A stretch of 64,000 bases of DNA from a virus. Taxonomy: Duplodnaviria; Caudoviricetes. The notes beneath the pieces are model-generated. The model saw nothing but the letters and a program-made list of their open reading frames with translations, ran no database searches and was not told the DNA's origin. The stretch lies in IMG/VR virus record IMGVR_UViG_3300030332_001412, positions 2,204-66,203 of that record. The stretch is one strand, 5' to 3'. Shown here one piece after another: positions 329-49,522 of the stretch (position 1 is its first letter; each line of letters begins with the position of its first letter). Both the position numbers and the translations under genes were made by a program.

Positions 329-340
329 GGGTTCTCCTTG

Positions 341-405: not shown

Positions 406-452
406 TAAATCGTCAGCGATTCAAATCGGCAACCACCACAGGAGACGCCTCT

Positions 453-725: not shown

Positions 726-925
726 CCCCGATTCAGAAGACCGCCCACCGGATCGAAATGGCCAACGGGCGCATCAATGCGATGTCCGGCGGCGGCGGCG
801 TCGATATGGGCGCGCTTGAGGAGGTCATGCTTGAGCGCGATGGCCTGCGCGAGCAATTGCGCGCCGAGGTCCGCGAGGCCACCGGCCTGACGGCCATCGA
901 TCTGATCCGCGCTCTGTCAATCTAG
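722..925 (+). CDS. Hypothetical protein
   Basis: ATGA overlap with upstream gene; MTPIQKTAHRIE... Confidence 0.6.
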   Translation: MTPIQKTAHRIEMANGRINAMSGGGGVDMGALEEVMLERDGLREQLRAEVREATGLTAIDLIRALSI

Positions 926-1022
926 CTTCGGGGGTTTCTAACTCCCTCCCCCGAGGGCCCGGGCGGGTGCTGTCCACCTAAGTCGCCCGCCCGGCGTCCC
1001 CACCCACCACGAAAGGAATGCA

Positions 1023-1805: not shown

Positions 1806-1808
1806 GCA

Positions 1809-3257
1809 ATGCGTATCGTTCAATTCCACGCCGAGAATTTCAAGCGCCTCGGCCTCGTCGAAATCACGCCCGAGGGCAATCTCGTCACCATCGGCGGCAA
1901 GAACGGACAGGGCAAATCGAGCGTCCTCGATGCGATCTTTGTCGCGCTCAAGGGCCGGGCCGTTGCCCCGCCGAAGCCCATCAGGGCGGGCGAGGAAAGG
2001 TGCGTCATCCAACTCGATCTTGGCGATCTGGTCGTCACCCGCACATTCCGCCAGCAAGAGGGCAAGCCCTATACGGACGCGATCAAGATCGAGGATTCGG
2101 AAGGCCGCCGCTATGGCAAGCCGCAAGAGGTCTTGAACGGCCTGTTGGGAGAAATCGGGTTCGATCCGTTCGAATTCGTCAATCTCAAGCCGAAAGAACA
2201 GGTCGCGCGGCTGCTCGAAATGGTCCCGCTATCGATTGACCTCGACGATTACGCCGCCGCCGATACATCGGACTTTGAGAACCGGCGCGATGTGAACCGC
2301 GATGTCGCCCGATTGAAAGCGCAGCTTGAGGGCATCCCGAAAAAGGATGTGCCGGGCGATCTGCCAGATCGGGAGGCCTTGCGCGAGCAGCTTGGCAATG
2401 CGGCCAATACCAACGCGGCGATCACTTGCGAGCAACAGCGCCGCGAGGATGAAGGCGCTGCCATCGGTCAGGAAGAACAGCGGATCAAGAACGAGCGGGC
2501 CCGCATTGCCGAGCAGCGCCGCTTGCTCGACGAGGCCGAACAGGCCGCCAACGAGGCCTCGACAAAGCTGGACGATCGCGAAAAGGCGCTGGCCGCGCTG
2601 CCGCCGCTCGACGAGTATGTCGATACCGACGCAATCCGGCAAAAGCTGGCCGAGGCCGACGCCATCCAGGCGACGGTCGATGAACAAAACCGCCGGGCCC
2701 AGATCGCCAAGGAACTCGACGCCGCCGAGGCGAAATCGCAGGAATATACCGACGCGATGGCAACCCGGGCCAAGGAGCGGAACGCCGCGCTGGCCGAGGC
2801 CGAAATGCCGGTCGAGGGTCTGGCCTTCTCAATCGACGAGAAGGGCGAGGCGACGCTGACCTATGAGGGCCTGCCGTTCGATAAGGACCAGATCAGCACG
2901 GCGGCGATGCTCAGGGTGAGCACGGCGGTCGGTATGGCCAGCAACCCCCGCCTGCGGGTCTTGCGCATCATGGACGGCTCGCTACTCGACGAGGACAGCA
3001 TGAAGCTGCTCGCCGAAATGGCCGAGGCCGAGGATTTCCAGCTTTGGGTCGAGGTCGTCGGCGATGGCGGGGTCGGCATCGTCATGGAAAACGGCACGAT
3101 TAGGGGCGCGCCAGACGCCGAGGGCGATGCAAAGGAAAAAGCTGCCGCCGAAATCGAGGCCAAGATTGCGACCGCCAAGGCCGAGGAAAAGCCGAAGGCC
3201 AAGGCCAGCAAGGGCGACGCCGCCAAGGATGATCTTTTCGGGGGAGAGGAAAAGTGA
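1809..3257 (+). CDS. SMC/Rad50-like AAA ATPase
   Basis: Walker A GKNGQGKSS, long coiled coil, Walker B/D-loop LRIMDGSLLD. Confidence 0.85.
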   Translation: MRIVQFHAENFKRLGLVEITPEGNLVTIGGKNGQGKSSVLDAIFVALKGRAVAPPKPIRAGEERCVIQLDLGDLVVTRTFRQQEGKPYTDAIKIEDSEGRRYGKPQEVLNGLLGEIGFDPFEFVNLKPKEQVARLLEMVPLSIDLDDYAAADTSDFENRRDVNRDVARLKAQLEGIPKKDVPGDLPDREALREQLGNAANTNAAITCEQQRREDEGAAIGQEEQRIKNERARIAEQRRLLDEAEQAANEASTKLDDREKALAALPPLDEYVDTDAIRQKLAEADAIQATVDEQNRRAQIAKELDAAEAKSQEYTDAMATRAKERNAALAEAEMPVEGLAFSIDEKGEATLTYEGLPFDKDQISTAAMLRVSTAVGMASNPRLRVLRIMDGSLLDEDSMKLLAEMAEAEDFQLWVEVVGDGGVGIVMENGTIRGAPDAEGDAKEKAAAEIEAKIATAKAEEKPKAKASKGDAAKDDLFGGEEK

Positions 3258-3520
3258 GCCGCCCCCTGACAGCCTTGGAGCAAGCGCAACGCCAGCGGAA
3301 CAAGCAGCTTTGCGAGTATGTCCGCAATACCGCACAGGTGCCGCTCGCGGTCCATGATTTCGATGATGACTGGACCCCGGCGGGCTCAATGTATCGCGAA
3401 AGCCTGACCGAAGCGGGATTGATCGAGGTCCGCGAGCCAGCGCCGCCAGAGGAAGGCGGCGACGGCGAGCCGGGCGGCCTTTATCTGACCGAGGCCGGGG
3501 AGGCGCTGGCCAATGAGTGA
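3254..3520 (+). CDS. Hypothetical protein
   Basis: GTGA overlap, operon position. Confidence 0.6.
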   Translation: MSRPLTALEQAQRQRNKQLCEYVRNTAQVPLAVHDFDDDWTPAGSMYRESLTEAGLIEVREPAPPEEGGDGEPGGLYLTEAGEALANE

Positions 3521-3779
3521 CAGCCGACTTGAGCCCGATACCGCCGCCGATAGCGACGACGGGCACGCGCTCCACAGCATCGCGATCAGCCTCAAGCGGA
3601 TCGCCGACGCTGTGTCGGCTGGCGGCACGGTCGATAAACTGGCGGGGCTTCTCGATCCCGAGAACCCCGAGGGTTTCTTGCGGGCCAGCATCAATTGTTA
3701 CGGGGAGGGCATTGGCGAAGCCCTCCAAGGCCAAATCGTGCGCGGCCAGCGCGGGATTGATCAATACGAGGGACGATAG
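3513..3779 (+). CDS. Hypothetical protein
   Basis: Overlaps upstream stop, operon position. Confidence 0.6.
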   Translation: MSDSRLEPDTAADSDDGHALHSIAISLKRIADAVSAGGTVDKLAGLLDPENPEGFLRASINCYGEGIGEALQGQIVRGQRGIDQYEGR

Positions 3780-3783
3780 CACC

Positions 3784-5433
3784 ATGAACAAACGAGATAT
3801 GGAAGACGCGCTGCGGCGCGAGGTAGAGCAATGGCCCGGCGTCGAGGTCGAGTTTGCCGAGCCGACCGGCAAGGGGCATCCGAAAGCGAAATACAGCTTC
3901 GGCGGCAAGATGCTCTCCCACCCCTACGCCTCCTCGCCATCGGATAGCGCGTTCGGCGTGCGCGCCATGCTCGGCGATCATCGCCGGGTCCTGAAGAAGC
4001 TAGGCGCCGAGCGGGCCAAGCCCGAGCCGAGCAAGGAGGAAGACGAGGCCCCCTATCGCAAGCCGAACGATGGCAAGGCGAAGCGGGCCAATCCGATCAA
4101 GACCGGCACCGCGCCGGTGACGCCTGATCTGGCCGAAAAGCTGGTCGATGTCGGCGCGGCCTCGCCCGAGCAGGCCAAGAATGCCAAGGACGCGCAGCCG
4201 ATCATCATCATGCGAAACGAGGGGCCGGAGGGCACGCAAGAGCAGCCGGGCGACGATGCGATCAAGGCGGCTTTCGAGGCGCGCATTGCCGCGATCGTCG
4301 ACGGGATTTATTTCGATCTGCCCGAGGACGTCTATCACGCGGTGCCCCGGCTTTCCTCGTCCGGCATCCAGAAGATTTGCGTCAGCCCGGCGACGTTCTG
4401 GCGCGGCTCTTGGCTCGACCCCGAGCGCCCAGATCATGACGAGGAACAGACGATCTACCAGCTTCTCGGCAAGGCCTATCATGTGGCCCGGCTTGAGCCG
4501 CATCTGTTTGAGTCGACCTATGTGCGCGAGTTGGACAAATCAGAGGCCCCGAAGGGGGCGCTGATAACCGGCGACGATATGAAAAAGGTGCTTGAGGAAT
4601 ATGGCCTGCCGAAATCGGGCAAGGTTCTCGATCAGGCCGAACGCCTCGCCGACGCTGGCTATCCGGCGAACAAACTCTGGCCGCTGATCGTCAAGGATTG
4701 GGAAGCGGAGCGCGGCCAGCGCATCCCCCTCCCGGCCAAGCATTACGACCAGATGGTCAAGGATTCGGAGCGCATCAGCAAGAACGCGGAAATCGCCCCG
4801 TTGCTGCAAGGCGGCGAGGCCGAGGTATCGATATTCTGGACCGATGAACATGGCGTGCAGATGAAAGCCCGCGTGGACTATCTGACGCGCGATTGGTGGG
4901 TCGATTTCAAGACTTTCGACAACAGCCGGGGCAAGAACGTCAATCAGGCCCTCGTCGATGCGGTGCGGTATAACCGCTACTATATTCAGGCCCCGGTCTA
5001 TCGCGAGGCAATCGAGCAGATCAGGGTCGGCAATCTGCCGATCATTGAGGCCAGCACGGACGATCAGCGCGCCTTGATTGCCGCCATGGCGATCCGTCCA
5101 GGCGAGTTGCAATGCTGGTATGTTTTCCAAGAGAAGGGCGGCATCCCGAACCTTCTGGCGCGCGAATTCCCCTTTTACTCGGTGCCCTATACGACGCTGT
5201 TCAACGAGGCGATTACCGACGACGAGGAACGCAAGCTGGCGGTGCGCGAGGCGACCAAAAACCGCACCGCGCTGTTCATCAAGGGGGCGGGCGAGGTCTT
5301 GCAGGCCAAGAAGCTGTTCGAACTATATCGCCAAGTCTATGAGGACGGCGAGCCGTGGTTCCCTATCCATTCGATAGGCAAATTCTCGGACGAGGATTTC
5401 CACCCCTATTGGCTCGAAGGCTCGCTGGCGTGA
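3784..5433 (+). CDS. RecE/ExoVIII-like PD-(D/E)XK exonuclease (DUF3799-like) with N-terminal extension
   Basis: EDVYHAVPRLSSSGIQK, LLGKAYH, MKARVDYL...VDFKT; start at ATG 3784. Confidence 0.8.
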   Translation: MNKRDMEDALRREVEQWPGVEVEFAEPTGKGHPKAKYSFGGKMLSHPYASSPSDSAFGVRAMLGDHRRVLKKLGAERAKPEPSKEEDEAPYRKPNDGKAKRANPIKTGTAPVTPDLAEKLVDVGAASPEQAKNAKDAQPIIIMRNEGPEGTQEQPGDDAIKAAFEARIAAIVDGIYFDLPEDVYHAVPRLSSSGIQKICVSPATFWRGSWLDPERPDHDEEQTIYQLLGKAYHVARLEPHLFESTYVRELDKSEAPKGALITGDDMKKVLEEYGLPKSGKVLDQAERLADAGYPANKLWPLIVKDWEAERGQRIPLPAKHYDQMVKDSERISKNAEIAPLLQGGEAEVSIFWTDEHGVQMKARVDYLTRDWWVDFKTFDNSRGKNVNQALVDAVRYNRYYIQAPVYREAIEQIRVGNLPIIEASTDDQRALIAAMAIRPGELQCWYVFQEKGGIPNLLAREFPFYSVPYTTLFNEAITDDEERKLAVREATKNRTALFIKGAGEVLQAKKLFELYRQVYEDGEPWFPIHSIGKFSDEDFHPYWLEGSLA

Positions 5434-6155
5434 GCGATCTTTTCGGCAACCCCGACCCCATCATCCGGATCGTCGATTTCGAGGCCACCGGCCTTGAGCC
5501 CGACGCTCTGGTGGTGGAGGTCGGCACCACCGATTTGAACGCCGCGACGCGCGAGATTGGCGAGACTCGAGCCACGCTCTGCCGAGTGCCGGCCATGCCG
5601 CCAGAGGTCCGCGCCATCCATCACATCAGGGCCAGCGAGACGGCCGATTTTCCGCCCTATGATCGCCGGGTTCTCTACGAGGAAGCGGCCCGGGCGGGGG
5701 TCTATGCTTGGGCGGCGCACAACGCCTCCTTTGAGGAACGGTATCTGATCGGCCCGCTGCCGGTCTTTTGCACCAATAAGGCGGCGCTGCGGCTTTGGCC
5801 CGAGGCGCCCGCGCATGGCGTCTTTGCCTTGCTCTACTGGCTTGAGGATCAGGGCCGCGTCACGTTCGATCAGGCGCGCGCCCACCCGCCCCATCGGGCG
5901 GGCCCCGATAGCTATGCGACGGCGGTCTTGCTCAAGACGATACTCGACGAAGGCGTGACGGGCCGGACGCTACTCGAATGGACATGCGAGCCGCGGATGT
6001 TGCCGCGCTGCCCGATTGGCGATTGGCGGGGCCGCCCATGGGCCGAGGTCGATTGGGGGTTCCTCGATTGGATCCTCCGCAAGATCGACGACCCCGACAT
6101 CAGATTTAACGCCTCACTGGAAATTGAACGAAGGAGACATAGCGATGAACGATGA
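5430..6155 (+). CDS. DEDDh 3'-5' exonuclease (ExoX-like)
   Basis: IVDFEATG, AHNASFE, HRAGPDS; C-terminal GDWRGRPWAEVDWGFLDW domain; GTG start 5430. Confidence 0.85.
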   Translation: MSDLFGNPDPIIRIVDFEATGLEPDALVVEVGTTDLNAATREIGETRATLCRVPAMPPEVRAIHHIRASETADFPPYDRRVLYEEAARAGVYAWAAHNASFEERYLIGPLPVFCTNKAALRLWPEAPAHGVFALLYWLEDQGRVTFDQARAHPPHRAGPDSYATAVLLKTILDEGVTGRTLLEWTCEPRMLPRCPIGDWRGRPWAEVDWGFLDWILRKIDDPDIRFNASLEIERRRHSDER

Positions 6156-7266
6156 AACCAAGACCGAGGCGACCGAGCCCGGCACCGATATGGCGATCAG
6201 CGATGGCCACAGCCGCAACATCGCCCAGACCGACCCGCTCGGCAGCGTGGGCGCCCTGCTGGACGCGATGATGAAGCTGGCGCGCGACCCCGAGGTCGAT
6301 GCGCAGAAATTCGAGACCATCGCGCGGGTCGCCAAGGACGCCCGCGATGATGCGAAAAAAGAGCAATACTACCAAGATAAGGCCGCCGCGATGTTCGCTA
6401 TGCCGGTCATTCGCAAGGACAAGCGGATCGTCATCCCGGGCAAGGGCGATGCGCCAGATCGGGTGCAAGGCACTTTCGCGTCCTGGCCGGATTTGCAGCG
6501 CGCCATCGACCCGATCTTGCACGCCAACAATCTGCGCCTGAGCCATGAAATCGGCCACGATGGCGTGGTCGTTCTGGTTCGCCCGATTTTGCAGCACCGC
6601 AACGGCTATGTCGAGCGCGGCGACCAGATGGCCCTCCCGCTCGATCAGAGCGGCGGCAAGAACAATACTCAGGGCGCGGGCTCGGCGACGACCTATGGCC
6701 AGCGATATACCACCGTCCCTTTCCTCGGCATTCGCTATGAGGGCGCGCAGGATGATGACGGAAGCCTGACCGCTATGCCGGACGAGCCGATGAACGATCA
6801 GCAGCAAAGGCGGCTTGAAGAAGCCGAGCGCGCCGCCGGTCGGGGCCGCGAGGCCTATGAAAACTGGTTCAAATCGATCCCGCCGATTGACCGCGCTTGG
6901 ATGATTCAGACCGGGCGGCACAATGACTATCGCGACGAGGCCGGGCCGCTGCCCGAGGGCAACGCTCAGATCGAGGCGCAGCCGAAAGGCGAGGCCAAGC
7001 CGAAAGCGAACGGCAAGGCCCAGACGACCCCCAAGGAATGGGCCGAGGGCTATATCGCCAAGATCGGCCAGATCGAAAGCCTGACTGATCTGGCGATGCT
7101 TCAGGACAAGGAGCGCCGCACGCTCGATGCGCTCAAGGGCCGCGACAAGACGCTGCACGATAAATGCGTCAAGGCGGGCAACGACGCTTTCGAGCGCCTG
7201 CGCGGCGATGATGATGACAGCGAGCCCGGCGACGACGCTGGCCTGTTCGATGGAGAAACTAACTGA
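6145..7266 (+). CDS. erf: ERF-family single-strand annealing protein
   Basis: NNTQGAGSATTYGQRYT...DDDG matches the ERF GS..TY.RRY...DDD signature; SD AAGGAG. Confidence 0.8.
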   Translation: MNDETKTEATEPGTDMAISDGHSRNIAQTDPLGSVGALLDAMMKLARDPEVDAQKFETIARVAKDARDDAKKEQYYQDKAAAMFAMPVIRKDKRIVIPGKGDAPDRVQGTFASWPDLQRAIDPILHANNLRLSHEIGHDGVVVLVRPILQHRNGYVERGDQMALPLDQSGGKNNTQGAGSATTYGQRYTTVPFLGIRYEGAQDDDGSLTAMPDEPMNDQQQRRLEEAERAAGRGREAYENWFKSIPPIDRAWMIQTGRHNDYRDEAGPLPEGNAQIEAQPKGEAKPKANGKAQTTPKEWAEGYIAKIGQIESLTDLAMLQDKERRTLDALKGRDKTLHDKCVKAGNDAFERLRGDDDDSEPGDDAGLFDGETN

Positions 7267-7799
7267 TGTTCGATTCCCTTAATCGCGTGCAATTGATCGG
7301 CACTCTCGGGGCTGACCCCGAGGTGCGATCTTTCCAGAATGGCGGCAAGGTCTGCAATCTGCGGGTTGCCTGCTCTGAGAGTTGGAAAGATCGCCAGACC
7401 GGCGAGCGGCAAGAGCGCACCGAATGGATAACGGTCGCGGTCTTTTCCGACGGCCTGATCGGCTTGATCGAGCGGTTCTTGCGCAAGGGCTCGAAAGTCT
7501 ATGTCGAGGGCAAATTCACCACCCGCAAGTGGCAAGATCAGGGCGGGAACGATCGCTACAGCACTGAGGTCGTCGTGCGCGGATTCGGCGGCACGGTCCT
7601 GAAATTGAACAAGGACGATAAAGGCTCGGGCGGTGGCTCTGGCGGCTCTGGCGGCGGCGGCTCTTGGAATCAGGGCGGCGGCGGCGGTGGCCATTCGGGC
7701 GCCGGGGCGTCGAGCGATTGGACGCGCGGCGGCGGTCATCAATCCGATGGTGGGACCGGCTCCCATTACGACGATCTTGATGACGATATTCCGTTCTAG
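7266..7799 (+). CDS. ssb: Single-stranded DNA-binding protein
   Basis: LNRVQLIGTLGADPEVRSF OB fold, Gly-rich linker, C-terminal DDDIPF. Confidence 0.95.
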   Translation: MFDSLNRVQLIGTLGADPEVRSFQNGGKVCNLRVACSESWKDRQTGERQERTEWITVAVFSDGLIGLIERFLRKGSKVYVEGKFTTRKWQDQGGNDRYSTEVVVRGFGGTVLKLNKDDKGSGGGSGGSGGGGSWNQGGGGGGHSGAGASSDWTRGGGHQSDGGTGSHYDDLDDDIPF

Positions 7800-7801
7800 C
7801 C

Positions 7802-8038
7802 ATGGGTCGGCGTGGTCCCCTTTGCGCGGCGGTGCTGGCCGCCGAGTTTCGCCATCAGCAGCCTTGGAAAAAGTGCTGTGAGCAGACCGCCGCACATTGG
7901 GTCGATGGCGTCCCTCTGTGCGGCACCCATTTTAACGCCGCCTATCGCGGCAAGATCGCTGTCGTCGTCCAGATCGAGGCCGACGAAGCTGATATGATCG
8001 GAGAAGATAATGCACGAAAAGGTCAAGCGCCTAATTGA
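7802..8038 (+). CDS. Small Cys-rich hypothetical protein
   Basis: Follows ssb by 2 nt; CC...C..H motifs. Confidence 0.5.
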   Translation: MGRRGPLCAAVLAAEFRHQQPWKKCCEQTAAHWVDGVPLCGTHFNAAYRGKIAVVVQIEADEADMIGEDNARKGQAPN

Positions 8039-8894
8039 GCGCGAGGGGACCGGCATCAGCTGGACCGACCTCACCTTCAACCCATGGATTGGCTGTCAGA
8101 AGATCGGGCCCGCCTGCGATAATTGCTATGCGGAAGATCTGGCGACGAGCCGCCTCGGCGTCGAATGGGGCCCGGGCGCCCCTCGCCGCCGCACCGCGCC
8201 GGGCAATTGGGTCAAGCCCCTGCGGTGGAACCGCATCGCCGAGGAAGCGGGGGTGCGGCTGACGGTCTTTTGCGCCAGCCTGGCCGACGTTTTCGATAAC
8301 GCGGTCGATCCTCAATGGCGGCGCGATCTGGGCCAACTGATCGCCGAGACGAAGCACCTCGACTGGATGGTGCTTACCAAGCGCATCGGCAATGTCCGGG
8401 GCATGGCGCTCGCGATGTTCGATGGGCGCCCGCCGGTCAATTTCTCGCTTGGCGTGACGATTGCCAACCAGATCGAGGCCGACCGCGATCTGCCCAAGAC
8501 GCTCGCGACCAAGGCGGGGCTCTCCATCGACCGGCTGTTCATCAGCGCCGAGCCATTGCTCGGGGCGCTCGATCTAAGGCGCTATCTGCCGGGCGTTGAC
8601 TTGCTGATCGTCGGCGGCGAATCCGGCAAGAACGCCCGCCCGATGAACCCCGCGTGGCCCCTGTCGCTGCGCGATCAATGCGCCGCCGCCGAGGTGCCTT
8701 TCCACTTTAAGCAATGGGGCGAGTGGTTTCGATACGGCGAGGTCGATGCGAGCGGCTTGGAGAATTCCGTCGATAAGGGCCAGCGCCCGGGCTTGTGGCA
8801 TGAATGGCCGACCGGCAATTTCAGCGTCCGTCTCGGCGCGCGAAAGGCCGGGCGCCACCTCGACGGGGTAATTCATTCGGAGCATTTCAAGTGA
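8010..8894 (+). CDS. DUF5131 / phage Gp37Gp68 family (radical-SAM-like Cys motif)
   Basis: ISWTDLTFNPWIGCQKIGPACDNCYA, FCASLADVF, ISAEPLLG, IVGGESG, FHFKQWG. Confidence 0.9.
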   Translation: MHEKVKRLIEREGTGISWTDLTFNPWIGCQKIGPACDNCYAEDLATSRLGVEWGPGAPRRRTAPGNWVKPLRWNRIAEEAGVRLTVFCASLADVFDNAVDPQWRRDLGQLIAETKHLDWMVLTKRIGNVRGMALAMFDGRPPVNFSLGVTIANQIEADRDLPKTLATKAGLSIDRLFISAEPLLGALDLRRYLPGVDLLIVGGESGKNARPMNPAWPLSLRDQCAAAEVPFHFKQWGEWFRYGEVDASGLENSVDKGQRPGLWHEWPTGNFSVRLGARKAGRHLDGVIHSEHFK

Positions 8895-9385
8895 GCAAGA
8901 AACCATACGACGCCCACCAGACCCTAAAGCCGGGCGAGCCGCATTTCACCTTGCAGGGCGGCGACCCGCTGGCCCCCAAGGCGATCAGCTATTACGCCGA
9001 CCTGATCAGGAAGGATGCGCTCAAGCGCGACACCAAGCGCGAGGTCAGCGCGGGCCTGCATCGGGCGGCCTCATGCGACGAGATAGCATGGTCGTTCGAT
9101 GATTACCGGATGGCGGGCATTGAGGCCGAGGACGAGGCCAAGCCGAAACGGAAGGTCGATCTGGCGGCCGGCGCACGCAACGCCGCCGAGCGCCGGGGCA
9201 CATTGATCGATTGCGCCAAGCTATTGAGCAACGCGCGGTCAACCATCGAGGAAGCCGCCGAGGCCCTTCTCGCTATCTCGCGCACCGAGTTTGCCGAGGA
9301 CATCACCCGGCTGCGCGATTGCCAGAACCACCTCCTTGAAAGCCAAGAGGCCATCGACCCCCGCGAAAATGGCTCGGCCACCTGA
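8891..9385 (+). CDS. Hypothetical protein
   Basis: GTG 8891 overlaps upstream stop; EPHFTLQGGDPLAP motif. Confidence 0.6.
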   Translation: MSKKPYDAHQTLKPGEPHFTLQGGDPLAPKAISYYADLIRKDALKRDTKREVSAGLHRAASCDEIAWSFDDYRMAGIEAEDEAKPKRKVDLAAGARNAAERRGTLIDCAKLLSNARSTIEEAAEALLAISRTEFAEDITRLRDCQNHLLESQEAIDPRENGSAT

Positions 9386-9408
9386 TTTTTCCCACCACGG
9401 AGAGCGAA

Positions 9409-9726
9409 ATGACTGATCTGTTCGACTATGACCCCAAGCCCGACCCATGGCCAATCGAGACGGGGGTGCCCATCAGCGGCGACAAAAGTCCGCGGCAGCG
9501 GGTGAAATGGGCCCGGCCCGATTTCCAAGCGCAGCTTGCCCGGCTTGAGGTGGGGCAATCGTTCGTGGTGCGGCCCGAGCAATGCGGCGGGGCGCCGCTG
9601 ATCGTCGTCCAGAACCTCGCCAGCGGGGCGGCGGCGACCTATTGCAAAGGCTTCACCCCCGGGGCCCGGAAATTTACCACCCGCCAGATCGGCGGCGAAT
9701 TCGTGAGAGTCTGGCGCACGATATGA
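9409..9726 (+). CDS. Small putative DNA-binding protein
   Basis: Strong SD; IETGVPI...LEVGQSFVV...FTTRQ...VRVWR pattern. Confidence 0.6.
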   Translation: MTDLFDYDPKPDPWPIETGVPISGDKSPRQRVKWARPDFQAQLARLEVGQSFVVRPEQCGGAPLIVVQNLASGAAATYCKGFTPGARKFTTRQIGGEFVRVWRTI

Positions 9727-10922
9727 CCGCCTACAACAGCCTGATCGCCGCCTACTACAATGAGAACGACCCGGTTGCCGCCGAATGGTTGCGCCGCTTG
9801 ATCGCGCGCGGCTTGATTGCGCCAGGCGAGGTCGATGAAAGGGATATTCGCGATGTCGCGCCAGCCGAGCTTCTTCGATTTACCCAATGCCATTTCTTCG
9901 CCGGAATCGGGCTCTGGTCAGGAGCCTTGCGGCGAGCCGGATGGCCCGACGACCGCCCTATCTGGACCGGATCATGCCCATGCCAGCCTTTCAGCGAGGC
10001 AGGCGCAGGAGCGGGGTTTGCTGACGAGCGGCACCTTTGGCCGCACTGGCATTGGCTTATCCAGCATTGCCGACCTCGGGTCATCGTTGGCGAGCAAGTT
10101 GCGGCAAAGGACGGCCTCGGGTGGTTCGATCTTGTATCGGCTGACTTGGCGGGAATCGGTTACGCCCGAGGGGCGGTCGATCTGGCAGCTGCGGGCTTCG
10201 GGATGGAGTGGCGGGGCTCTGCCGAACAGGAACGGTTGGTCCGGGCCCTACGCCTTTGTCCAGATCCCATGGTCGCCCGGCATCTTGGTGCCTTTGCCGA
10301 TTGGGCTGATCAGGCTCTTGCGCTCGGGGGCCACCACATCAGGCAACGACTCTACTTTGTCGGGATGGCCGACCCAGACGGCGAAGAAATCGGCGGGCGC
10401 GGCGAATACCGACCCGGAGAAATCGCTGGCCAGAGCGAAGGGCCCGCATTCGAACGACTTGCAGGATTTCGTTCAACTGGCGGGGTGGTCGACGGCCAGC
10501 GCCCGGGATTGGAAAGACAGCGCGGGGATGGCGACCGAGGGGACGAACCCGGACGGCTCGCTGCGCAAGCGGACAGATCAATTGCCGAGGCAGGCCAATC
10601 TGGCCGGGTGGCCCTCGGCTCTGGCGAACGACGGGAAGGCCAGCGACTATTCGACCAGCCGGGGCCACCGCATTCTGAAATTGCCCGGGGCGGCGAAGAT
10701 GGCCGGGGGGATGGACAAGCCGATGCGCTTGACGGCGAGCGGGACGCTGTTGATTGGCTCTACTGCCGGGATGGAGAGTGGCGGCCAGTTAGATCCGGCA
10801 CATTCCCGTTGGCTGATGCGAATCCCGGAAGATTGGGCCAGTTGCGCGCCTACGGAAACGGCCTCGACTTTGAAACGGCGACGGAATTCTGCCGCGTCGT
10901 AAAGGAATTGGCCGACGCATGA
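9723..10922 (+). CDS. C5-cytosine DNA methyltransferase, alpha polypeptide
   Basis: FFAGIG (I), GSCPCQPFS (IV), GEQV (VI), [10 protein letters not shown] (VIII), LRAYGN (X); motif IX not in this frame. Confidence 0.9.
9853..10902 (+). CDS. C5 methyltransferase beta polypeptide in an alternative frame
   Basis: SD AAGGGA before ATG 9853; GW(P/S)T..A.D TRD-like repeats; [17 protein letters not shown] = motif IX. Confidence 0.75.
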
Positions 10923-11107
10923 TTGAGGTAGTCCAGATCGGGGCGCGCTGGTCTTGGGAAATGATCAGCGCCAGCGGGCGCGTGCTGGCCTATCCGCTCG
11001 AGTCATGGTCATCGATCCAAGACGCCGCCCGGGCTGGCCAATCCTATCGGGCGGCGATCTGGGCCCGGGCCGAGGAAATCGATCATCGCCAAGCGCGCGC
11101 GATCTGA
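10919..11107 (+). CDS. Hypothetical protein
   Basis: ATGA-coupled on both sides. Confidence 0.55.
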   Translation: MIEVVQIGARWSWEMISASGRVLAYPLESWSSIQDAARAGQSYRAAIWARAEEIDHRQARAI

Positions 11108-11697
11108 TGGCCATTCGAGATTTCCCGATGCCGCAATGGCCCAACAGCGGCAAGCGTGGCTGGTGCCGCTGGTGCGGTGAGCAAATCCCGGTCGTCATCG
11201 ACGGCAAGAAATCGACGCAACGGCTCTGGCACCCCCATTGCTTCGCTCAATGGGAATTGCACACCCGGCGCGACGCGCAGATGGCCTATCTGATCGATTG
11301 CTACGGCAAGCGATGCCGGACCTGTCCCGATGGCACGCCGGTGCCGAAGCACTGGATCAAGGGCCCGGAGGTGACGGTCTATCAACCGAGGCCGTCGTTC
11401 GGCTCGCCCGCTGAAATAGGCGTCGAGGAATGGCGACGGCTGCACGCTGCCTGGCGCGCCGAAAACCCGAACCCGCGCTATACCGAGGTCGATCTGGTCG
11501 ATTGGCTTGAGGTCGATCATCGCACCCCGCTTTGGGAGGTCGCCGATCTGCCGGACGACGAACGCCGCTGGTATTTCGGCCCCGGCAATCTCTGGCTGCT
11601 ATGCGGCCCATGCCATCAGCAAAAGACTGCGCGCGAGGCGGCGAGGCGAGCGGCGATCAAGCGCGCCGTTGTGGCGCAAATGCGGCTCGACCTATAG
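11107..11697 (+). CDS. HNH endonuclease
   Basis: CRWC, CRTC, EVDHRTPL...NLWLLCGPCHQQKT. Confidence 0.85.
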   Translation: MAIRDFPMPQWPNSGKRGWCRWCGEQIPVVIDGKKSTQRLWHPHCFAQWELHTRRDAQMAYLIDCYGKRCRTCPDGTPVPKHWIKGPEVTVYQPRPSFGSPAEIGVEEWRRLHAAWRAENPNPRYTEVDLVDWLEVDHRTPLWEVADLPDDERRWYFGPGNLWLLCGPCHQQKTAREAARRAAIKRAVVAQMRLDL

Positions 11698-11747
11698 CCG
11701 GGGCCCGGGCGCTCCGGATGTTTTATTAGGACTAAGGCAGATTTCGC

Positions 11748-11776
11748 TTCGCTGCGATGGTTGCAGTCGCTAACAG
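11748..11776 (+). promoter_or_regulatory. sigma70-like promoter with 15-bp operator
   Basis: TTCGCT-17bp-TAACAG; CTGCGATGGTTGCAG at 11752-11766. Confidence 0.65.
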
Positions 11777-11802
11777 GGCAGCACCACCACGGAGACGACA
11801 GA

Positions 11803-12168
11803 ATGCCTACCCCACCAAAGCCATCGATTCAGGAACGAGCCGCCGACGCGATCTGCCCAGAATGCGGCGGCGAGGTCGTCCGGCGCTCAAGCCGGGGCCC
11901 GATGCCTACCTTTTGCTCCAAGCTGTGCCGCCGCGAGCATAGCAATCGCCATCTAGTCGAAGGCCGGGCGATCATCGCCTTGCTGAAGGCTTGGCGGATT
12001 GATCGCGGCAGCGGCGAGATTGCCAAGACGGCCTTCACCCAAGCGACGCAAATCCTCGACGGCTTCAATTTCGCCGACCGGGAGGCCGAGCGCCCCCGGG
12101 CCGACCTCTACGCCGCGAAGCTGATGGCCAGCGGCACGCTCTATATGGACCGCGCTCGGGCGCGATAA
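11803..12168 (+). CDS. Zn-ribbon hypothetical protein
   Basis: CPECG...FCSKLCR; CCACCACGGAG leader. Confidence 0.7.
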   Translation: MPTPPKPSIQERAADAICPECGGEVVRRSSRGPMPTFCSKLCRREHSNRHLVEGRAIIALLKAWRIDRGSGEIAKTAFTQATQILDGFNFADREAERPRADLYAAKLMASGTLYMDRARAR

Positions 12169-12170
12169 TA

Positions 12171-12221
12171 CTGCGGCCATTGCAGAATTCGGTTGCTGCA
12201 ATGGTTGCGTGATGGCAACTC
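12171..12221 (+). promoter_or_regulatory. Tandem 15-bp operators and promoter
   Basis: CTGCGGCCATTGCAG (12171-12185) and CTGCAATGGTTGCGT (12196-12210). Confidence 0.6.
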
Positions 12222-12247
12222 CCCCACACCCCACCACGGAGATTGAA

Positions 12248-12496
12248 ATGAAAGCCTGCATCAACAACTCGAATGACGATCATCTGTCGCCGCAAGCGCG
12301 AAAGCTAATCGGCACCATGCGCGGCGATATGGTCGAGCGAGCCGACGGCCAGCCGATGCCTGATCGCTTTACGGCCATCCCCCATCCTGATCGCCCGGCG
12401 ATGATCATTTGCGACGAGCAAAGCGGGCGCAGCACCACCGTTGGCCTCTACGCCTATAGGGCGATGCGCGAGGCCTTGAACGATCTGTTCGGCTGA
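12248..12496 (+). CDS. Hypothetical protein
   Basis: CCACCACGGAG leader, ATG 12248. Confidence 0.65.
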   Translation: MKACINNSNDDHLSPQARKLIGTMRGDMVERADGQPMPDRFTAIPHPDRPAMIICDEQSGRSTTVGLYAYRAMREALNDLFG

Positions 12497-12575
12497 ATCC
12501 CCGGGAGGGCGGGCCAGCACCGCCCCGACGATGGGTCCAGCACCCAATCACGAAACCACCACAGGAAGAAAAACG

Positions 12576-13067
12576 ATGACCAAGATTGCCAAGATTACCA
12601 AGCAGACCCTCCCGCAGATCGCCGAGCAGATGGAGAGCGAACTCGCGGCGCTCGCCGAGAAGCTAGGCCTGAAGATCAGCTATGGCGGCGGCAAATATGA
12701 CGCCGCTGGCAACGAGGGCACAATCAATATCACGGTCAAGATCGATGACCCCGAGGTCCAGCGCGAGGCCGCCCGCCTGATCTGGAATAACAACTGTCGA
12801 CTCATCGGCATTGATTATACCGATACCGAGAACAGCGGCTTGCGCCCCGAGGATTTCGGCACCGAATTCAAATATGGGCAGGCGACCTATGAGACGACCG
12901 GCATCGCCACCCGGGGCCGGGGCTCGCAGAAATACCCCATCCTCGTCAAAGTCATCAATGACCCGAAGGGCAAGCACGCCAGCGGCACGGCGCTGATGCT
13001 CCCCGATACAGCCGTGCCGCTGATCAGGATGGCCACAGACGCCGCACAGGCGACGAAAGCCGCCTAA
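12576..13067 (+). CDS. Hypothetical protein
   Basis: CCACCACAGGA leader, ATG 12576. Confidence 0.7.
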   Translation: MTKIAKITKQTLPQIAEQMESELAALAEKLGLKISYGGGKYDAAGNEGTINITVKIDDPEVQREAARLIWNNNCRLIGIDYTDTENSGLRPEDFGTEFKYGQATYETTGIATRGRGSQKYPILVKVINDPKGKHASGTALMLPDTAVPLIRMATDAAQATKAA

Positions 13068-13150
13068 CCGGGTCAGCGTCCCCTAGACCCCGCTGGTTAG
13101 CGCCAGCGGGGCGCAGATGGGCGCTGACGCCCTATCGGGAGAGCATCGCT

Positions 13151-13279
13151 ATGCGAGCATCAACGATCTTGCGACTGATCGACCGCCTTTTCGGGCGCCC
13201 CTTCCACCTTTGCCGCGATTGCGGGGGCGGCTATGTCTGCCCCGCATGCCGCTGGCCCGGCGAGAAGGGGTGGGACTGA
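13151..13279 (+). CDS. 42-aa zinc-finger microprotein (not in ORF track)
   Basis: SD GGAGAG; MRASTILRLIDRLFGRPFHLCRDCGGGYVCPACRWPGEKGWD; stop overlaps next ATG. Confidence 0.55.
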   Translation: MRASTILRLIDRLFGRPFHLCRDCGGGYVCPACRWPGEKGWD

Positions 13280-13656
13280 TGGCCGCGCCCACCGTCACAT
13301 TCTCGGGCGCGGAGGTCGCCTTGCTGGCGGGCATCATCGCCGGGGCGCTCCCCGCGCTGGATGAATCCGATTTCGATGTCGCCGACCTCTTGCTCGACAA
13401 GGCGCTGGCGGCATTGCCCCGCCCTATCGCGCCTGATCTTGGCAACAAGATCGCGCACTTGCGCATCCCGCCGCTTGATCGATTTCGTATCGCCATTCTG
13501 GCGCGCTTTCCGTCGGGATCAAAGTTCAACCTCATTGACGCCTCTATCGTCGGCAAGGTCCGGCCCTCGCGAGCCTTCACGCTATTGGAGACGCTCGCGC
13601 TTGAGAACGGCGTCATCCAGCGGGCAGGGAGCGAGCATTGGACCATTGGAGCCTGA
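13279..13656 (+). CDS. Hypothetical protein, possible winged helix
   Basis: TGATG coupling; MAAPTVTF... Confidence 0.55.
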   Translation: MAAPTVTFSGAEVALLAGIIAGALPALDESDFDVADLLLDKALAALPRPIAPDLGNKIAHLRIPPLDRFRIAILARFPSGSKFNLIDASIVGKVRPSRAFTLLETLALENGVIQRAGSEHWTIGA

Positions 13657-13850
13657 ATCGACATCCCGAGGCCATAGCGGCCTTGCGCGCGCTGCATGAT
13701 GTCGGCGTGGTCCGGGCCGAGTGGAACCACCCGGGCTATGAAGTCCTGCGGCATCGCAATCTGATCGCATGGCGAGCCGCCAGCACCACCGCCCGGGACT
13801 ATCGCCTGACGCCCCGGGGCCGGGAACTCGCAAAGGATCTTTTCGGATGA
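13638..13850 (+). CDS. Hypothetical protein
   Basis: Operon position; YRLTPRGRE winged-helix-like end; start uncertain. Confidence 0.5.
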   Translation: MDHWSLNRHPEAIAALRALHDVGVVRAEWNHPGYEVLRHRNLIAWRAASTTARDYRLTPRGRELAKDLFG

Positions 13851-13993
13851 TTGACCAAATCCTCGGGGCCCTCTGGCCCCTGATCATCGCCGCCAGCGCC
13901 GGGGTCGCCATCGCGTCCCTGATCGATAGCGCCAGCGCGGGCGTCGCCCATTTCAAAGCACTCAAGGAGCAATTGACCAATGACCGAACCTAA
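13847..13993 (+). CDS. Small single-TM protein
   Basis: ATGA overlap; ILGALWPLIIAASAGVAIASLI. Confidence 0.5.
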   Translation: MIDQILGALWPLIIAASAGVAIASLIDSASAGVAHFKALKEQLTNDRT

Positions 13994-14198
13994 GCACCCC
14001 GAGACGGCCGATCTGGCCCGGCGCGCGCTTGAGGCTTCGGGTTGCAAGACCCGTAAGGAATTCATCGCCATGTTCGGCGATGCCATCAAGATGCGGACGC
14101 TCGACGGATGGCTGGCGGGCAATTGCCCCTTGCCGCCCCTGACCTCTCTCATGTTGCGCGAGTTCGTCGCCGGATGGAGGCCGACTTGCATCGCATAA
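13980..14198 (+). CDS. Small HTH-like protein
   Basis: SD AAGGAG; KEFIAMFG..MRTLDGWLAG. Confidence 0.55.
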   Translation: MTEPKHPETADLARRALEASGCKTRKEFIAMFGDAIKMRTLDGWLAGNCPLPPLTSLMLREFVAGWRPTCIA

Positions 14199-14425
14199 AC
14201 GGGGAGACGCGCGACGAGGCCGAAGCCGAATTCGACGCCCAGATCGACGCGAAGGCGCAGATCGCGTTCGCTTGCGATTGCCGCCTCGCGGTCGAGCGAT
14301 GGGCCTGCACCAACGGGTGCTGCATTCGCTATAATTTCACTGTCCTGTCAGCCGGGGAGATCGCGCCCAAAGGCTGGACGATCTACGAAAACCATGGCGG
14401 CAGAGCCGTGGGAAGGAGCGCCTGA
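14186..14425 (+). CDS. Hypothetical Cys-containing protein
   Basis: SD GGAGG, TTG 14186. Confidence 0.5.
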   Translation: MHRINGETRDEAEAEFDAQIDAKAQIAFACDCRLAVERWACTNGCCIRYNFTVLSAGEIAPKGWTIYENHGGRAVGRSA

Positions 14426-15183
14426 TGTCGCGCGCGATGGGATCGCATCAATCGGCCAAGGCGCAAAGCGTGGTATGGCTCACGCCGCCCGGCATCATCC
14501 AAGCCCTCGGGGGAGCCGGCACTTTCGATCTTGACCCCTGCGCCGCCCCGGCACCGCGCCCATGGCCGACCGCCCGGCACATGAACGGCCAGGCTGACGC
14601 GAATGGGTTGCTAATCGATTGGTGGGGCCGCGTCTGGCTCAATCCGCCCTATTCGTCAGCCGAGATAGGCAAGTGGATGCGGCGCTTGGCCGACCATGGG
14701 CGGGGCACGGCCCTGATCTTTGCCCGCACCGAGACGGAAGCATTCAGGCGCGAGGTATGGGAGCGCGCGAGCGGGCTCCTGTTTCTCTACGGGCGGATCA
14801 ATTTCCACCGGCCCGATGGATCGCGAGCCCGCCAGAACGCGGGCGCGCCCTCGGTGCTTTGCGCTTATGGGCAGGACGATCTTGACCGCTTGGCCGAGGC
14901 TGATCTGCAAGGATCGCTCGTCCCTCTGCGCTTTGCCCGCTACCTCCTGATCGACGGTCTGGTCGGCACATGGGGCGAGGAAATCAAGCGATGGCTCGGC
15001 GATCAGGCCGGGCCGGTCAATCTAAGCGACGCCTACCGCCATTTCGCGCGCCACCCCAAGAGCAAGCGCAATCGCCACTGGCAGGCCAAGGTGCGCCAGC
15101 AATTGCAAATCCATGGCCGCCGGATTGGCCCGGCGCGATGGCAGGGGAGGCGCGAGTGCGACGCAAGACTGCCCGGCCTATAG
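14425..15183 (+). CDS. dam: Phage Dam-family N6-adenine methyltransferase
   Basis: WLTPP, FDLDPCA, VWLNPPYS, LIFARTET, LFLYGRINF. Confidence 0.9.
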   Translation: MSRAMGSHQSAKAQSVVWLTPPGIIQALGGAGTFDLDPCAAPAPRPWPTARHMNGQADANGLLIDWWGRVWLNPPYSSAEIGKWMRRLADHGRGTALIFARTETEAFRREVWERASGLLFLYGRINFHRPDGSRARQNAGAPSVLCAYGQDDLDRLAEADLQGSLVPLRFARYLLIDGLVGTWGEEIKRWLGDQAGPVNLSDAYRHFARHPKSKRNRHWQAKVRQQLQIHGRRIGPARWQGRRECDARLPGL

Positions 15184-15572
15184 ACCCGCCGATTTGCTGC
15201 GAATGCGCGCAAGAGGCGACGCTGACGCAGAGCCAAGCGATCTACCCGCACCGCCCCGATCTTTGGAATCGTCCGATGTGGCTTTGCCAGTGCGGTGCCT
15301 ATTGCGGTTGCCACAAGGGGACCGAGCGGCCCGTCGGGCGACCGGCGGGCAAGGAGACCCGGCTCGCGCGGCAAGCCGCCCACGCGGCATTCGACCCGCT
15401 CTGGCAGGCGAAGATGAAGCGCGACAAGATCAGCAAGACGAGGGCCCGGGGTGCCGGGTATCTATGGCTTGCCGACCAACTCGATCTTGACCCCGAGGAT
15501 TGCCACATCGGGTCGATGACCGCCGCCTACGCACGCCGGGTTGTGGCCGTTTGCAAAAGGAGAAATCGTTGA
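15156..15572 (+). CDS. DUF3268-like zinc-finger protein
   Basis: IYPHRPDL...WLCQCGAYCGCH.GT..P.G..A...R..AH.AFDPLW. Confidence 0.8.
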   Translation: MRRKTARPIDPPICCECAQEATLTQSQAIYPHRPDLWNRPMWLCQCGAYCGCHKGTERPVGRPAGKETRLARQAAHAAFDPLWQAKMKRDKISKTRARGAGYLWLADQLDLDPEDCHIGSMTAAYARRVVAVCKRRNR

Positions 15573-15961
15573 GCGATCTACCACGCCCATCAGCCGCGCC
15601 TTGCGGCTCCTGCCCCTATCGCGTCGATGTCCCGTCGGGGATCTGGGCGCGCGAGGAATATGAAAAGCTGACGCTATATGACGGCGAGACATGGGAGCAA
15701 TCGCCCGCGCTGTTCTATTGCCACCAGAACGACGGGCACCTTTGCGCCGGTTGGGCCGGGTGCCACGATACCGACGAATTGCTGGCCCTGCGGCTCAATC
15801 GCGTTTCACATGAAACATTCGAGTATGTCAGCCCGGTCCCGCTTTTCGGCTCGGGCGCCGAGGCGGCCAGCCATGGGATGGCGGCTATCGATTGCCCAGA
15901 TCGGCACGCGGTCAAGATGATCGACAAGCTGGCCGCTCGGCGCTTGGGGATAGATCGTTGA
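15569..15961 (+). CDS. DUF6283-like Cys-rich protein
   Basis: PCGSCPYRVDVPSGIW...FYCHQ...LCAGW; SD AAGGAG, TTG start. Confidence 0.75.
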   Translation: MSDLPRPSAAPCGSCPYRVDVPSGIWAREEYEKLTLYDGETWEQSPALFYCHQNDGHLCAGWAGCHDTDELLALRLNRVSHETFEYVSPVPLFGSGAEAASHGMAAIDCPDRHAVKMIDKLAARRLGIDR

Positions 15962-15972
15962 TGACATTCCCC

Positions 15973-16071
15973 CGCCCATTTCCTATGTGATGGGCGTTCC
16001 TTTCGGAACCGCGTCCTGTGGTGGGAAGCGCGAACCCCGGGAGACCGCCGCTAGGTCGCCCGGGGTTCTTT
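15973..16071 (+). ncRNA. Candidate four-hairpin small RNA ending in an intrinsic terminator
   Basis: Hairpins 15973-15996, 15996-16009, 16010-16032 (loop UGUGGUG) and terminator 16032-16068 followed by TTT. Confidence 0.4.
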
Positions 16072-16089
16072 ATGTCTTAGACGCATTTC

Positions 16090-16141
16090 AATGGGCGATC
16101 TGGCCGGGGCGTTGATGCCCCCGGGGCCGATGATCGCCATT
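16090..16141. terminator. Long hairpin at the convergence of early and late units
   Basis: AATGGGCGATC...GATCGCCATT inverted repeat downstream of the o-spanin; no clear U-tract. Confidence 0.4.
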
Positions 16142-16167
16142 CTCGGCGATCTGACGGGCCCTGCTGG

Positions 16168-16518
16168 TCATTCCTCCGGCTTAGGCAATTGGGCGAGATA
16201 ATCGCGCAGCCAGGCGTCGTCCTCCGCGCAAGCCCACAGCGCCCCTTCGACCTCCACGATATAGTCCGATACCGGCCCTTCGCGCTCGCGCTGGCGTTTC
16301 ACGTATTTGGCGAATTCGGCCATGGCCTGCGGGACGGTCGTTATCGCATCCCAATTGATCGAATATTCGGATTTGATCGTGGGCCGCTGGTCGATGATGA
16401 CCGCGCAATCAACCCGGTCGGCATCAATCGGGATGGGGACTTGAATGCGCTCGGGCCCGCACGCGCTAACCGCCAAACAGCACATCGAAAGGGCTAGAAC
16501 CATCTTCAGCTGCCGCAT
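16168..16518 (-). CDS. o-spanin (Rz1-like lipoprotein)
   Basis: Signal peptide and lipobox LAVSA-C; overlaps end of the i-spanin gene. Confidence 0.75.
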   Translation of the reverse strand: MRQLKMVLALSMCCLAVSACGPERIQVPIPIDADRVDCAVIIDQRPTIKSEYSINWDAITTVPQAMAEFAKYVKRQREREGPVSDYIVEVEGALWACAEDDAWLRDYLAQLPKPEE

Positions 16519-16801
16519 CTAGTTTCTCCTTTTCCGTTTCCACTCGCTTGAACTCAATCGCCGTGCGCTCGGCGCTTTGCTGATCGGCAATTGTGGCGGC
16601 CTCGGCGACTTGCTCCTTGAGCCGCTGCCCGGCCTCTTGCCACGCGGCCTCATTGGCGGCGGCACCATCATTATAGGCGTCGGCGCGCATCCAGACGATC
16701 GCGCCGATCAGAAGGCCGATGACCGTCAGATAGGCCACGAAGGGGGCGGCCTTCTCGCCCACGAAGCCAGCGACCAGTTTGATCAGATAACCCATCGTCA
16801 A
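16466..16801 (-). CDS. i-spanin (Rz-like)
   Basis: N-terminal TM, then coiled coil (AYNDGAAANEAAWQ). Confidence 0.7.
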   Translation of the reverse strand: MTMGYLIKLVAGFVGEKAAPFVAYLTVIGLLIGAIVWMRADAYNDGAAANEAAWQEAGQRLKEQVAEAATIADQQSAERTAIEFKRVETEKEKLDAAAEDGSSPFDVLFGG

Positions 16802-17346
16802 ATCCTTTCATCGTCAGCCGGGGGCATATCCGGCTCGGGGAATGTTTGGGCGGCCTCGCGGCTTTTATCGGCGACCGTCTCGGCGGCGTCATGGGCGGCC
16901 TGTCGCAGCGCGCTATCGCCAGCGCCAAGCCGGGCTGACGCGCCCGCGACCGTGCCGCTCACGCTCGCGCCGGAAAACTTGACGACGAAAACGGCCACCG
17001 GGATCAGGCCGAGGGCGACCGCGAGCGCCTTGGCGACCCATGCGATGGCCTCAATCTGCATTTTGCCCGTCTCGCCGCACAATTCGACGATCAGCTTGAT
17101 GTTCTCGGCGCTGCTCAAGCGGCCATCGGGCCCGAGATATTTCTCGGTAGTCATGATCTGGGCGCACCAATCGCGCGCGGCCAGCGTATTGATCGCATAC
17201 CAATTGAGCCCGATCAGGGCGATGGCGATGATCGCCACGATGGCCCAAGCGAAGCGGACGACCGAGTTTTCCGTCGGGCTGTCCATGAAATCGCGAAAAG
17301 AGTGCCAGGCGTTGGCGACCCGGCGCCGCGCCTTTGGCTTGGTCAT
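16798..17346 (-). CDS. Membrane protein in lysis cassette (holin/antiholin candidate)
   Basis: Two hydrophobic segments; GTGA/ATGA-coupled between endolysin and spanin. Confidence 0.55.
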   Translation of the reverse strand: MTKPKARRRVANAWHSFRDFMDSPTENSVVRFAWAIVAIIAIALIGLNWYAINTLAARDWCAQIMTTEKYLGPDGRLSSAENIKLIVELCGETGKMQIEAIAWVAKALAVALGLIPVAVFVVKFSGASVSGTVAGASARLGAGDSALRQAAHDAAETVADKSREAAQTFPEPDMPPADDERI

Positions 17347-45646: not shown

Positions 45647-45650
45647 CCTG

Positions 45651-49515: not shown

Positions 49516-49522
49516 TGGCCCG

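Follow-up and report, generated by a model that had tools for sequence, protein, structure and literature searches.

Is the structured stretch that closes the plus-strand block of this phage genome a gene for a small RNA (sRNA) directed against the ribosome-binding sites (RBSs) of other phage genes, or is it simply the end of an operon? The question arises at positions 15973–16071 of the DNA analysed here (the window), a stretch of 64 kb out of a 66.2-kb IMG/VR virus record. The Erythrobacter siphophages vB_EliS-R6L (R6L) and ZS04 share approximately 73% nucleotide identity with the window phage. The paper on R6L has no analysis of promoters, terminators or RNA; it reports that lysogeny, or else a carrier state, is possible in the absence of an integrase (PMC5463345). 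Marine metagenomes commonly contain the phage of the window: the index of the assembly collection lists its DUF6283 protein in 124 blocks, often on contigs of ~66 kb and with TARA Oceans samples included.

A structured element between two convergent operons

The stretch in question is part of a 206-nt gap (15962–16167) between convergent genes. The plus-strand block that ends at 15961 contains replication, methylase and small unknown genes, and the minus-strand lysis/structural operon ends at 16168. The features of the locus are as follows.

15569–15961, plus strand: DUF6283 (PF19800) gene, last of the plus-strand block (family match)
15960–15965, plus strand: −35-like box GATGAC, overlapping the last base of the upstream gene's stop codon (TGAC in 11 of 11 lineages)
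15973–15996, plus strand: hairpin 1 of the preliminary description, over the promoter-like spacer and −10-like box; terminator-like, with an 8-bp stem and a T-rich tail
15983–15988, plus strand: −10-like box CTATGT, 17 nt past the −35-like box (spacing of 17 nt in 11 of 11 lineages)
15996–16009, plus strand: predicted +1 (G15996) and 5' hairpin (purine 7 nt after the −10-like box)
16010–16030, plus strand: anti-leader hairpin, with core 16014–16027 reading UCCUGUGGUGGGAA (folding, relatives)
16032–16078, plus strand: predicted intrinsic terminator, GC stem-loop 16032–16068 and U-rich tail 16069–16078 (folding, covariation)
16079–16167, no strand assigned: module B, second half of the gap, with conserved blocks (gap alignment)
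16168–16518, minus strand: 116-aa gene without family, last in the convergent lysis/structural operon

Folding of 15960–16085 reproduces the four adjacent hairpins ending in a U-tailed terminator that a preliminary description had placed at 15973–16071. The MFE is −59.1 kcal/mol (z = −3.8), and one of 200 shuffles of this segment folds equally well. Positions 16014–16026 read UCCUGUGGUGGGA, in agreement with that description. Its account of the third hairpin stands as to sequence but not as to the UGUGGUG loop, since the loop of the MFE structure is just GUGGU, closed by a U·G pair. In the window this hairpin is weak and is missing from the centroid structure. At the 3' end of the element, a GC stem with covarying pairs is followed by a U-rich tail, as would be expected of the terminator of an sRNA gene. 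Hairpin 1 may terminate the upstream operon in the window. Its stem is weak or missing in several relatives, which sets it apart from the conserved parts of the RNA.

The element matches no Rfam family at the gathering threshold (cmscan of the window) or at E ≤ 1 (L003, L166 and L001), and ARAGORN finds 0 tRNA or tmRNA genes in 15000–17000. Alignments of the relatives contain no conserved ORF on either strand of the gap. A 42-aa ORF at 15987–16115 shows no conservation among relatives, and small minus-strand ORFs past the motif were rejected as not conserved (57 aa in the window versus 17 aa in R6L). The pattern of change is that of non-coding sequence: the 5' hairpin comes and goes, and indels between lineages are not multiples of three. 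Module B consists of a GC hairpin flanked by conserved TTAGGCGATAAT-like and CATTTCTCGG-like blocks. On the minus strand, these blocks frame a 20-aa ORF ending in IIA; with its start codon and intact in only three of nine lineages, it is probably non-coding. Module B may be the end of the late operon.

Complementarity to a shared ribosome-binding leader

According to the preliminary description, about a dozen genes share an RBS leader. Over-representation in the window and position before ATG codons confirm this. CCCACCAC occurs 9 times (1.3 expected) and CCACCANGGAG, with at most one mismatch, 12 times (4.0 expected). Approximately 12 leader instances lie 5–10 nt upstream of an ATG, on both strands. 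Leaders of the form CCCACCA(C/A)GGAG precede ~12 starts. Eight of these are on the plus strand; the other four, at 47–59 kb, are on the minus strand, so that the tagged genes are not confined to the early operon, contrary to what had been supposed.

433–443, plus strand: leader CCACCACAGGA, ATG 453 (90 aa); exact 11-nt complement of the core
1003–1010, plus strand: leader variant CCCACCAC, then 3 nt and AGGA, ATG 1023 (260 aa)
9391–9402, plus strand: leader CCCACCACGGAG, ATG 9409 (105 aa)
11784–11794, plus strand: leader CCACCACGGAG, ATG 11803 (121 aa, phrog_20494)
12230–12241, plus strand: leader CCCACCACGGAG, ATG 12248 (82 aa)
12556–12566, plus strand: leader CCACCACAGGA, ATG 12576 (163 aa); exact 11-nt complement of the core
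45689–45700, plus strand: leader CCCACCACGGAG, ATG 45710 (95 aa)
63380–63391, plus strand: leader CCCACCACGGAG, ATG 63399 (86 aa)
49048–49059, minus strand: leader CCCACCAAGGAG, 595-aa DNA methylase gene (47254–49041)
51820–51831, minus strand: leader CCCACCAAGGAG, 114-aa gene (51469–51813)
57241–57252, minus strand: leader CCCACCACGGAG, 129-aa gene (56839–57228); best net pairing energy in the window
58791–58802, minus strand: leader CCCACCAAGGAG, 172-aa gene (58270–58788, phrog_9720)

The tagged genes encode mostly small proteins without a family, plus one DNA methylase. No leader is found in the lysis/structural block at 16.2–45.3 kb. All tagged genes fall in 1–16000 and 45600–64000 of the window; the tag marks non-structural genes on both strands. 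No promoter is evident at a fixed distance upstream of the leaders. The distance from CCCACCAC to a GGAG-type Shine–Dalgarno (SD) sequence is variable, being 0, 1, 3 or 5 nt (window 1003–1022; R6L 16812; L007 459 and 874), suggesting that CCCACCAC is a separate module and not an extended SD. It may have a role of its own, for instance as a translational enhancer.

The 11-mer CCACCACAGGA is present three times in the window, at 433 and 12556 on the plus strand and at 16024–16014 on the minus strand, with ~0.01 chance matches expected. The claim that 16014–16026 contains the exact complement of two leaders is therefore borne out, the sites being 433 and 12556 rather than 432 and 12555 (off by one). 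Both leaders end 9 nt ahead of their ATG. Pairing with the other leader forms had been described as requiring one bulge; this is sufficient for CCCACCACGGAG, but CCCACCAAGGAG needs a mismatch too. The core in the window has an extra U and matches exactly only two leaders, pairing with the majority via a bulge. The extra U suits the two leaders that have an extra A; L166 and L207 have such leaders with the standard hairpin. Co-change of seed and leader is not demonstrable within the family because the core hardly varies.

A naive duplex scan that included GC-rich flanks was swamped by chance GC-rich duplexes, and contiguous matches and cofolding were used instead. Of the sites with at least 10 contiguous complementary bases, all 4 in the window and 9 of 10 in R6L coincide with RBSs. 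R6L has approximately 10 CCACCACGGA(G) leaders, complementary to the core over 10–11 contiguous bases. For cofolding, the whole RNA was paired with every candidate start (an SD, an ATG and an ORF of at least 60 aa), and the RNA's own fold was charged against the energy. Leader-bearing starts take the top 8 places among 119 candidates in the window. The median net energy of leader versus other starts is −13.3 versus −4.2 kcal/mol in the window and −7.7 versus −1.5 kcal/mol in R6L. Pairing between hairpin and leaders is predicted to be net favourable after unfolding, with energies that are modest in R6L. Complementarity at RBSs, a property expected of an sRNA gene of this kind, is present beyond chance. 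The seed is conserved and exposed: GUGGUG occupies the loop in every lineage folded, with just 6 nt unpaired and the remainder of the seed in a stable stem.

Conservation of the module and its promoter-like boxes

The homologous gap was taken from 11 lineages in R6L, ZS04, IMG/VR, Logan, ENA and NCBI sources. Their DUF6283 proteins are 60–75% identical to that of the window; counts made over these lineages are not independent, given their relatedness.

Window: several identical metagenome copies
R6L / ZS04: isolated phages
L174: complete 68-kb IMG/VR genome
L133: metagenome contig
L166, L192, L195, L201, L202, L207 and L208: Logan, ENA and NCBI contigs

The mean column identity is 54% in the gap alignment and 60–64% in narrower module alignments. 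Against this background, the 14-nt core UUCCGUGGUGGGAA is identical in 10 of the 11 lineages and its flanks diverge; the window alone has UCCUGUGGUGGGAA. Among the relatives, the core consistently folds into a hairpin whose loop is GUGGUG and whose inner stem is an invariant UUCC/GGAA. The outer stem, of 5–10 bp, is built from different pairs in each lineage (U-A, C-G, U·G, A-U, G-C), with compensating substitutions such as CUGU/ACAG, GCAG/CUGC, CG/CG and GA/UC. Covariation inside the anti-leader hairpin is limited because the hairpin is near-invariant. The sequence of the 5' hairpin changes from lineage to lineage; L174 and L192 lack this hairpin, and in them the anti-leader hairpin itself comes first. 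R6L-type lineages have an extra hairpin before the terminator. The two basal pairs of the terminator covary across lineages (A-U, G-C, C-G), and a U-rich tail is present in seven of 11; three R6L-type lineages are without a clear U-tail.

Could the gap be no more than a cluster of terminators and structures between convergent operons, the anti-leader being an inverted leader left over without regulatory function? There is a strong terminator in the gap between the convergent operons, a hairpin beside a terminator can merely stabilise 3' ends, and the window's own copy of the hairpin is weak. A leftover would be expected to decay, yet no stretch of the gap is better conserved across the 11 lineages than the 14-nt core, and neighbouring hairpins change or vanish. 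Moreover, the presence of the hairpin tracks the presence of leaders, as described below. We consider a functionless remnant very unlikely.

The same invariant inner stem raises the possibility that leader and anti-leader are one double-stranded DNA operator, bound in either orientation by a DNA-binding protein. TTCC-N6-GGAA is a palindrome of the type recognised by dimeric regulators, and the phage family encodes a MucR-type regulator (R6L gp61; Pfam ROS_MUCR in L207). However, the arms beyond TTCC/GGAA are not conserved but vary by compensating changes, and the leaders have no palindromic arms. Every leader includes the SD and keeps a fixed position with respect to its start codon, which points to a role at the RNA level. 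An operator is thus extremely improbable.

A covariance model built from nine lineages (R1) finds exactly one copy per genome, at 31–89 bits, and 95.8% of the cells of its alignment are paired. It finds no copy in more distant DUF6283-bearing phages. These distant relatives (L004–L010, L134–L161, L168, L193 and L198) have another gene order and no hairpin. The leader pattern CCACCAMGGAG has 9 occurrences in G000 and as many in the complete genome G006 (0 for the backwards control). In five DUF6283-bearing relatives without an R1 copy, two of them complete, it occurs 0 times. Leaders and hairpin therefore co-occur across genomes; relatives that keep the leaders without the complementary loop, which the preliminary description had held would speak against its proposal, are absent among these five. 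G004, a 19-kb fragment (21% complete), has CCCACCAC-type leaders and no hairpin in the available part. Further searches added few relatives. A scan of IMG/VR with a 14-base leader pattern gave 120 matches, none related to the window; a 16-base hairpin scan gave one true relative (L174), the other matches being chance or unrelated; and a search with the neighbouring 116-aa protein gave only three relatives.

Two sets of similar hairpins were seen elsewhere. G007, a 138-kb phage, carries two intergenic cassettes approximately 725 nt apart with coding sequence between them (L121 2980–3960, minus strand). Each has, in order, a TAG stop codon, a CUUCC-loop-GGAAG hairpin, a GC terminator hairpin, CGAUUGUU, a CACCAA/CCACCAC leader and an ATG. 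The loops are GUGGUG and UUGGUG, the latter being the exact complement of the CACCAA leader variant, and each cassette scores ~34 bits with R1. Anti-leader and leader are here in cis, and this arrangement is possibly a related form. The second set comes from AT-rich phage contigs (GC 0.32–0.39) unrelated to the window: L172 11400–11560, L184 8040–8190 and L187 5380–5520. Their sRNA-like unit consists of TTGACA-N17-TATACT, a long hairpin, a UUUCC-GUGGUG-GGAAA hairpin and a terminator. L187 has a glutamine riboswitch (56 bits), and L172 has a hit of 34.1 bits, just under the 35-bit gathering threshold. No matching RBS leaders were seen in these three contigs, and the likeness of the hairpin is probably a coincidence of the 16-base scan.

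Upstream of the hairpins, the pair TGAC-N19-TAT is invariant in 11 of 11 lineages, corresponding to GATGAC-N17-CTATAT-like boxes in the consensus register. The spacer is 17 nt long in all 11 with a mean identity of only 0.61, and the −10-like box is CTATAT in five. The pair fits the alphaproteobacterial sigma-70 consensus CTTGAC-N17-CTATAT (PMC2873474), the −35-like box matching at four of six positions. In all nine lineages folded, a purine 7 nt past the −10-like box is the first base of the first hairpin. We call the promoter putative because a generic E. coli-type promoter scan reports nothing at the locus. Since the fold starts 7 nt past the −10-like box, hairpin 1 of the preliminary description overlaps the promoter-like element. 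The boxes persist after either a TGA or a TAA stop, and behind DUF6283 as well as behind an extra gene of ~167 aa. This extra gene, of ~167–170 aa, lies between DUF6283 and the module in L001 (3416–3916), L192 (890–1405), L207 (8612–9115) and L208 (10396–10908); the 5' border of the module (TGAC) is unchanged in these lineages, as if the module were independent.

The preliminary description had regarded the RNA as derived from the 3' end of the early operon. The conserved −35/−10-like pair at the stop codon, with the fold starting 7 nt later, argues instead for a separate gene. The same description had made the RNA a timer of the early-to-late switch, set off when transcription reaches the end of the early operon. 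This was purely inferential, and it is disfavoured because a timer needs read-through from the early operon, against which the promoter-like boxes argue. A broader version of the 3'-end idea is that the plus-strand operon ends in this structured element, which would have no promoter of its own and be processed out or act within the long mRNA, pairing with leaders in trans or in cis. The element does stand directly behind the last plus-strand gene, and the leaders at 9391, 11784, 12230 and 12556 would be on the same presumptive transcript. In G007, the similar hairpins follow stop codons without a visible promoter, and a same-strand leader comes ~55 nt further on. The c4 RNA of P1 is likewise cut from the transcript that carries its target (PMC12197685). 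We nevertheless consider this origin unlikely: the boxes are conserved at a fixed spacing and the fold begins at the predicted +1; the exact 5' border of the module is kept whatever gene precedes it; and hairpin 1 in the window resembles a terminator placed ahead of the element.

Which strand is active bears on another alternative, that the hairpin binds a protein or acts as a decoy and that pairing with mRNA is not its function. It could be a leader mimic on minus-strand late transcripts, titrating a factor that recognises the CCCACCAC tag, or an RNA handle for a phage protein. Consistent with a recognised site, not just the fold but the sequence itself of inner stem and loop is invariant; the minus-strand hairpin displays the leader sequence itself; and the varying distance between CCCACCAC and GGAG suggests that the tag has its own role. 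The strand comparison points the other way. In nine of nine lineages, the fold of the plus strand is 1.9–18 kcal/mol more stable than that of its reverse complement, with 20 versus 8 G·U pairs. It is also on the plus strand that a U-rich tail comes after the GC hairpin, and the promoter-like boxes agree in direction. On the minus strand of several lineages, GUUUU comes after the GC hairpin, so that transcripts of that strand would stop short of the motif. No candidate binding protein was identified. A protein-binding or decoy hairpin therefore seems quite unlikely.

Proposed mechanism and relation to known systems

Our preferred reading, held with slightly better than even confidence on comparative sequence evidence, is that 15960–16078 is a stand-alone phage sRNA gene whose product pairs with a private RBS tag and represses translation. 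Of the preliminary description, this reading retains a conserved structured RNA antisense to a shared RBS leader, which the comparison of lineages supports, and drops the 3'-end origin, the timer and the restriction to one operon. A host sigma-70-type promoter (GATGAC, 17 nt, CTATGT) would start the RNA near G15996, and the intrinsic terminator would end it near 16075, giving an RNA of ~80 nt (80–105 nt in relatives). According to folding and comparison, this RNA would open with a variable 5' hairpin, continue with the hairpin that presents GUGGUG between UUCC/GGAA arms, and close with the terminator. Loop and arms are antisense to CCCACCAC(N0–1)GGA(G), to which they would bind. This private tag sits at the SD of roughly a dozen non-structural genes, encoded on either strand, and is missing from the structural and lysis genes. 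The loop would contact CACCAC first and the duplex spread over 8–12 nt, including the GGA of the SD. Such a duplex would block the 30S subunit and so lower translation of all tagged genes together, perhaps also speeding up mRNA decay. The purpose may be early-gene shut-off, steady damping or RNA-based immunity in a carrier state. The idea is directly testable because cultured vB_EliS-R6L (host Erythrobacter litoralis DSM 8509) has the same module.

Several cellular sRNAs resemble parts of the proposed RNA. Cuckoo and alpha-r14 (CcsR) are short alphaproteobacterial sRNAs that present anti-SD sequences in hairpin loops and have many mRNA targets. They are cellular, with repeated hairpins and C/U-rich CCUCCUCCC-type loops directed at ordinary SDs, whereas the element described here has a GUGGUG loop in a single copy, faces a phage-private tag beside the SD and has no Rfam match. 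The 3'UTR-derived enterobacterial sRNAs of the CpxQ/SroC type combine a seed and a terminator hairpin at the end of an operon; they have no promoter and are released by RNase E cleavage. In the phage, by contrast, conserved promoter-like boxes precede the predicted RNA.

In its logic, the proposed system resembles RegA and RegB of phage T4, a translational repressor and an endoribonuclease that cuts GGAG in early RBSs. There too, many early phage mRNAs are shut down together via their RBSs. RegA and RegB are proteins, whereas the effector proposed here is an RNA and the shared handle a dedicated sequence tag. More tentatively, and with somewhat less than even confidence, we suggest that a single dedicated sRNA reads a private tag (CCCACCAC beside the SD) and controls the whole non-structural set, as an RNA counterpart of RegA/RegB and an instance of a wider, undescribed phage strategy. 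The pair of tag and anti-tag could serve as an orthogonal translational switch.

Among phage RNAs, c4 of P1/P7, sar and OOP are antisense RNAs that repress phage mRNAs by pairing (PMC12197685); with the alphaproteobacterial anti-SD-loop sRNAs, they are the nearest known systems. c4 (Rfam C4, RF01695) is a phage RNA of ~77 nt whose loops pair with an RBS region and block translation, the loop sequence determining specificity. The C4 model finds no match at the gathering threshold in the window or at E ≤ 1 in L003, L166 and L001. c4 has two loops and essentially one operon target (icd-ant), and is processed from the same transcript; the element here has one loop, approximately 12 dispersed tagged targets on both strands and what looks like its own promoter. 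The sar RNA of P22 and OOP of lambda are cis-encoded and fully complementary to a single overlapping gene, whereas this element is encoded away from its presumed targets. Judged by its sequence, the element would represent a new RNA family, outside those in Rfam, in which one sRNA faces a shared private tag. c4, sar and OOP each control one neighbouring target; if the proposed mechanism is correct, it explains the identical leaders on unrelated early genes, and phages can organise a translational regulon of a dozen dispersed genes with one RNA.
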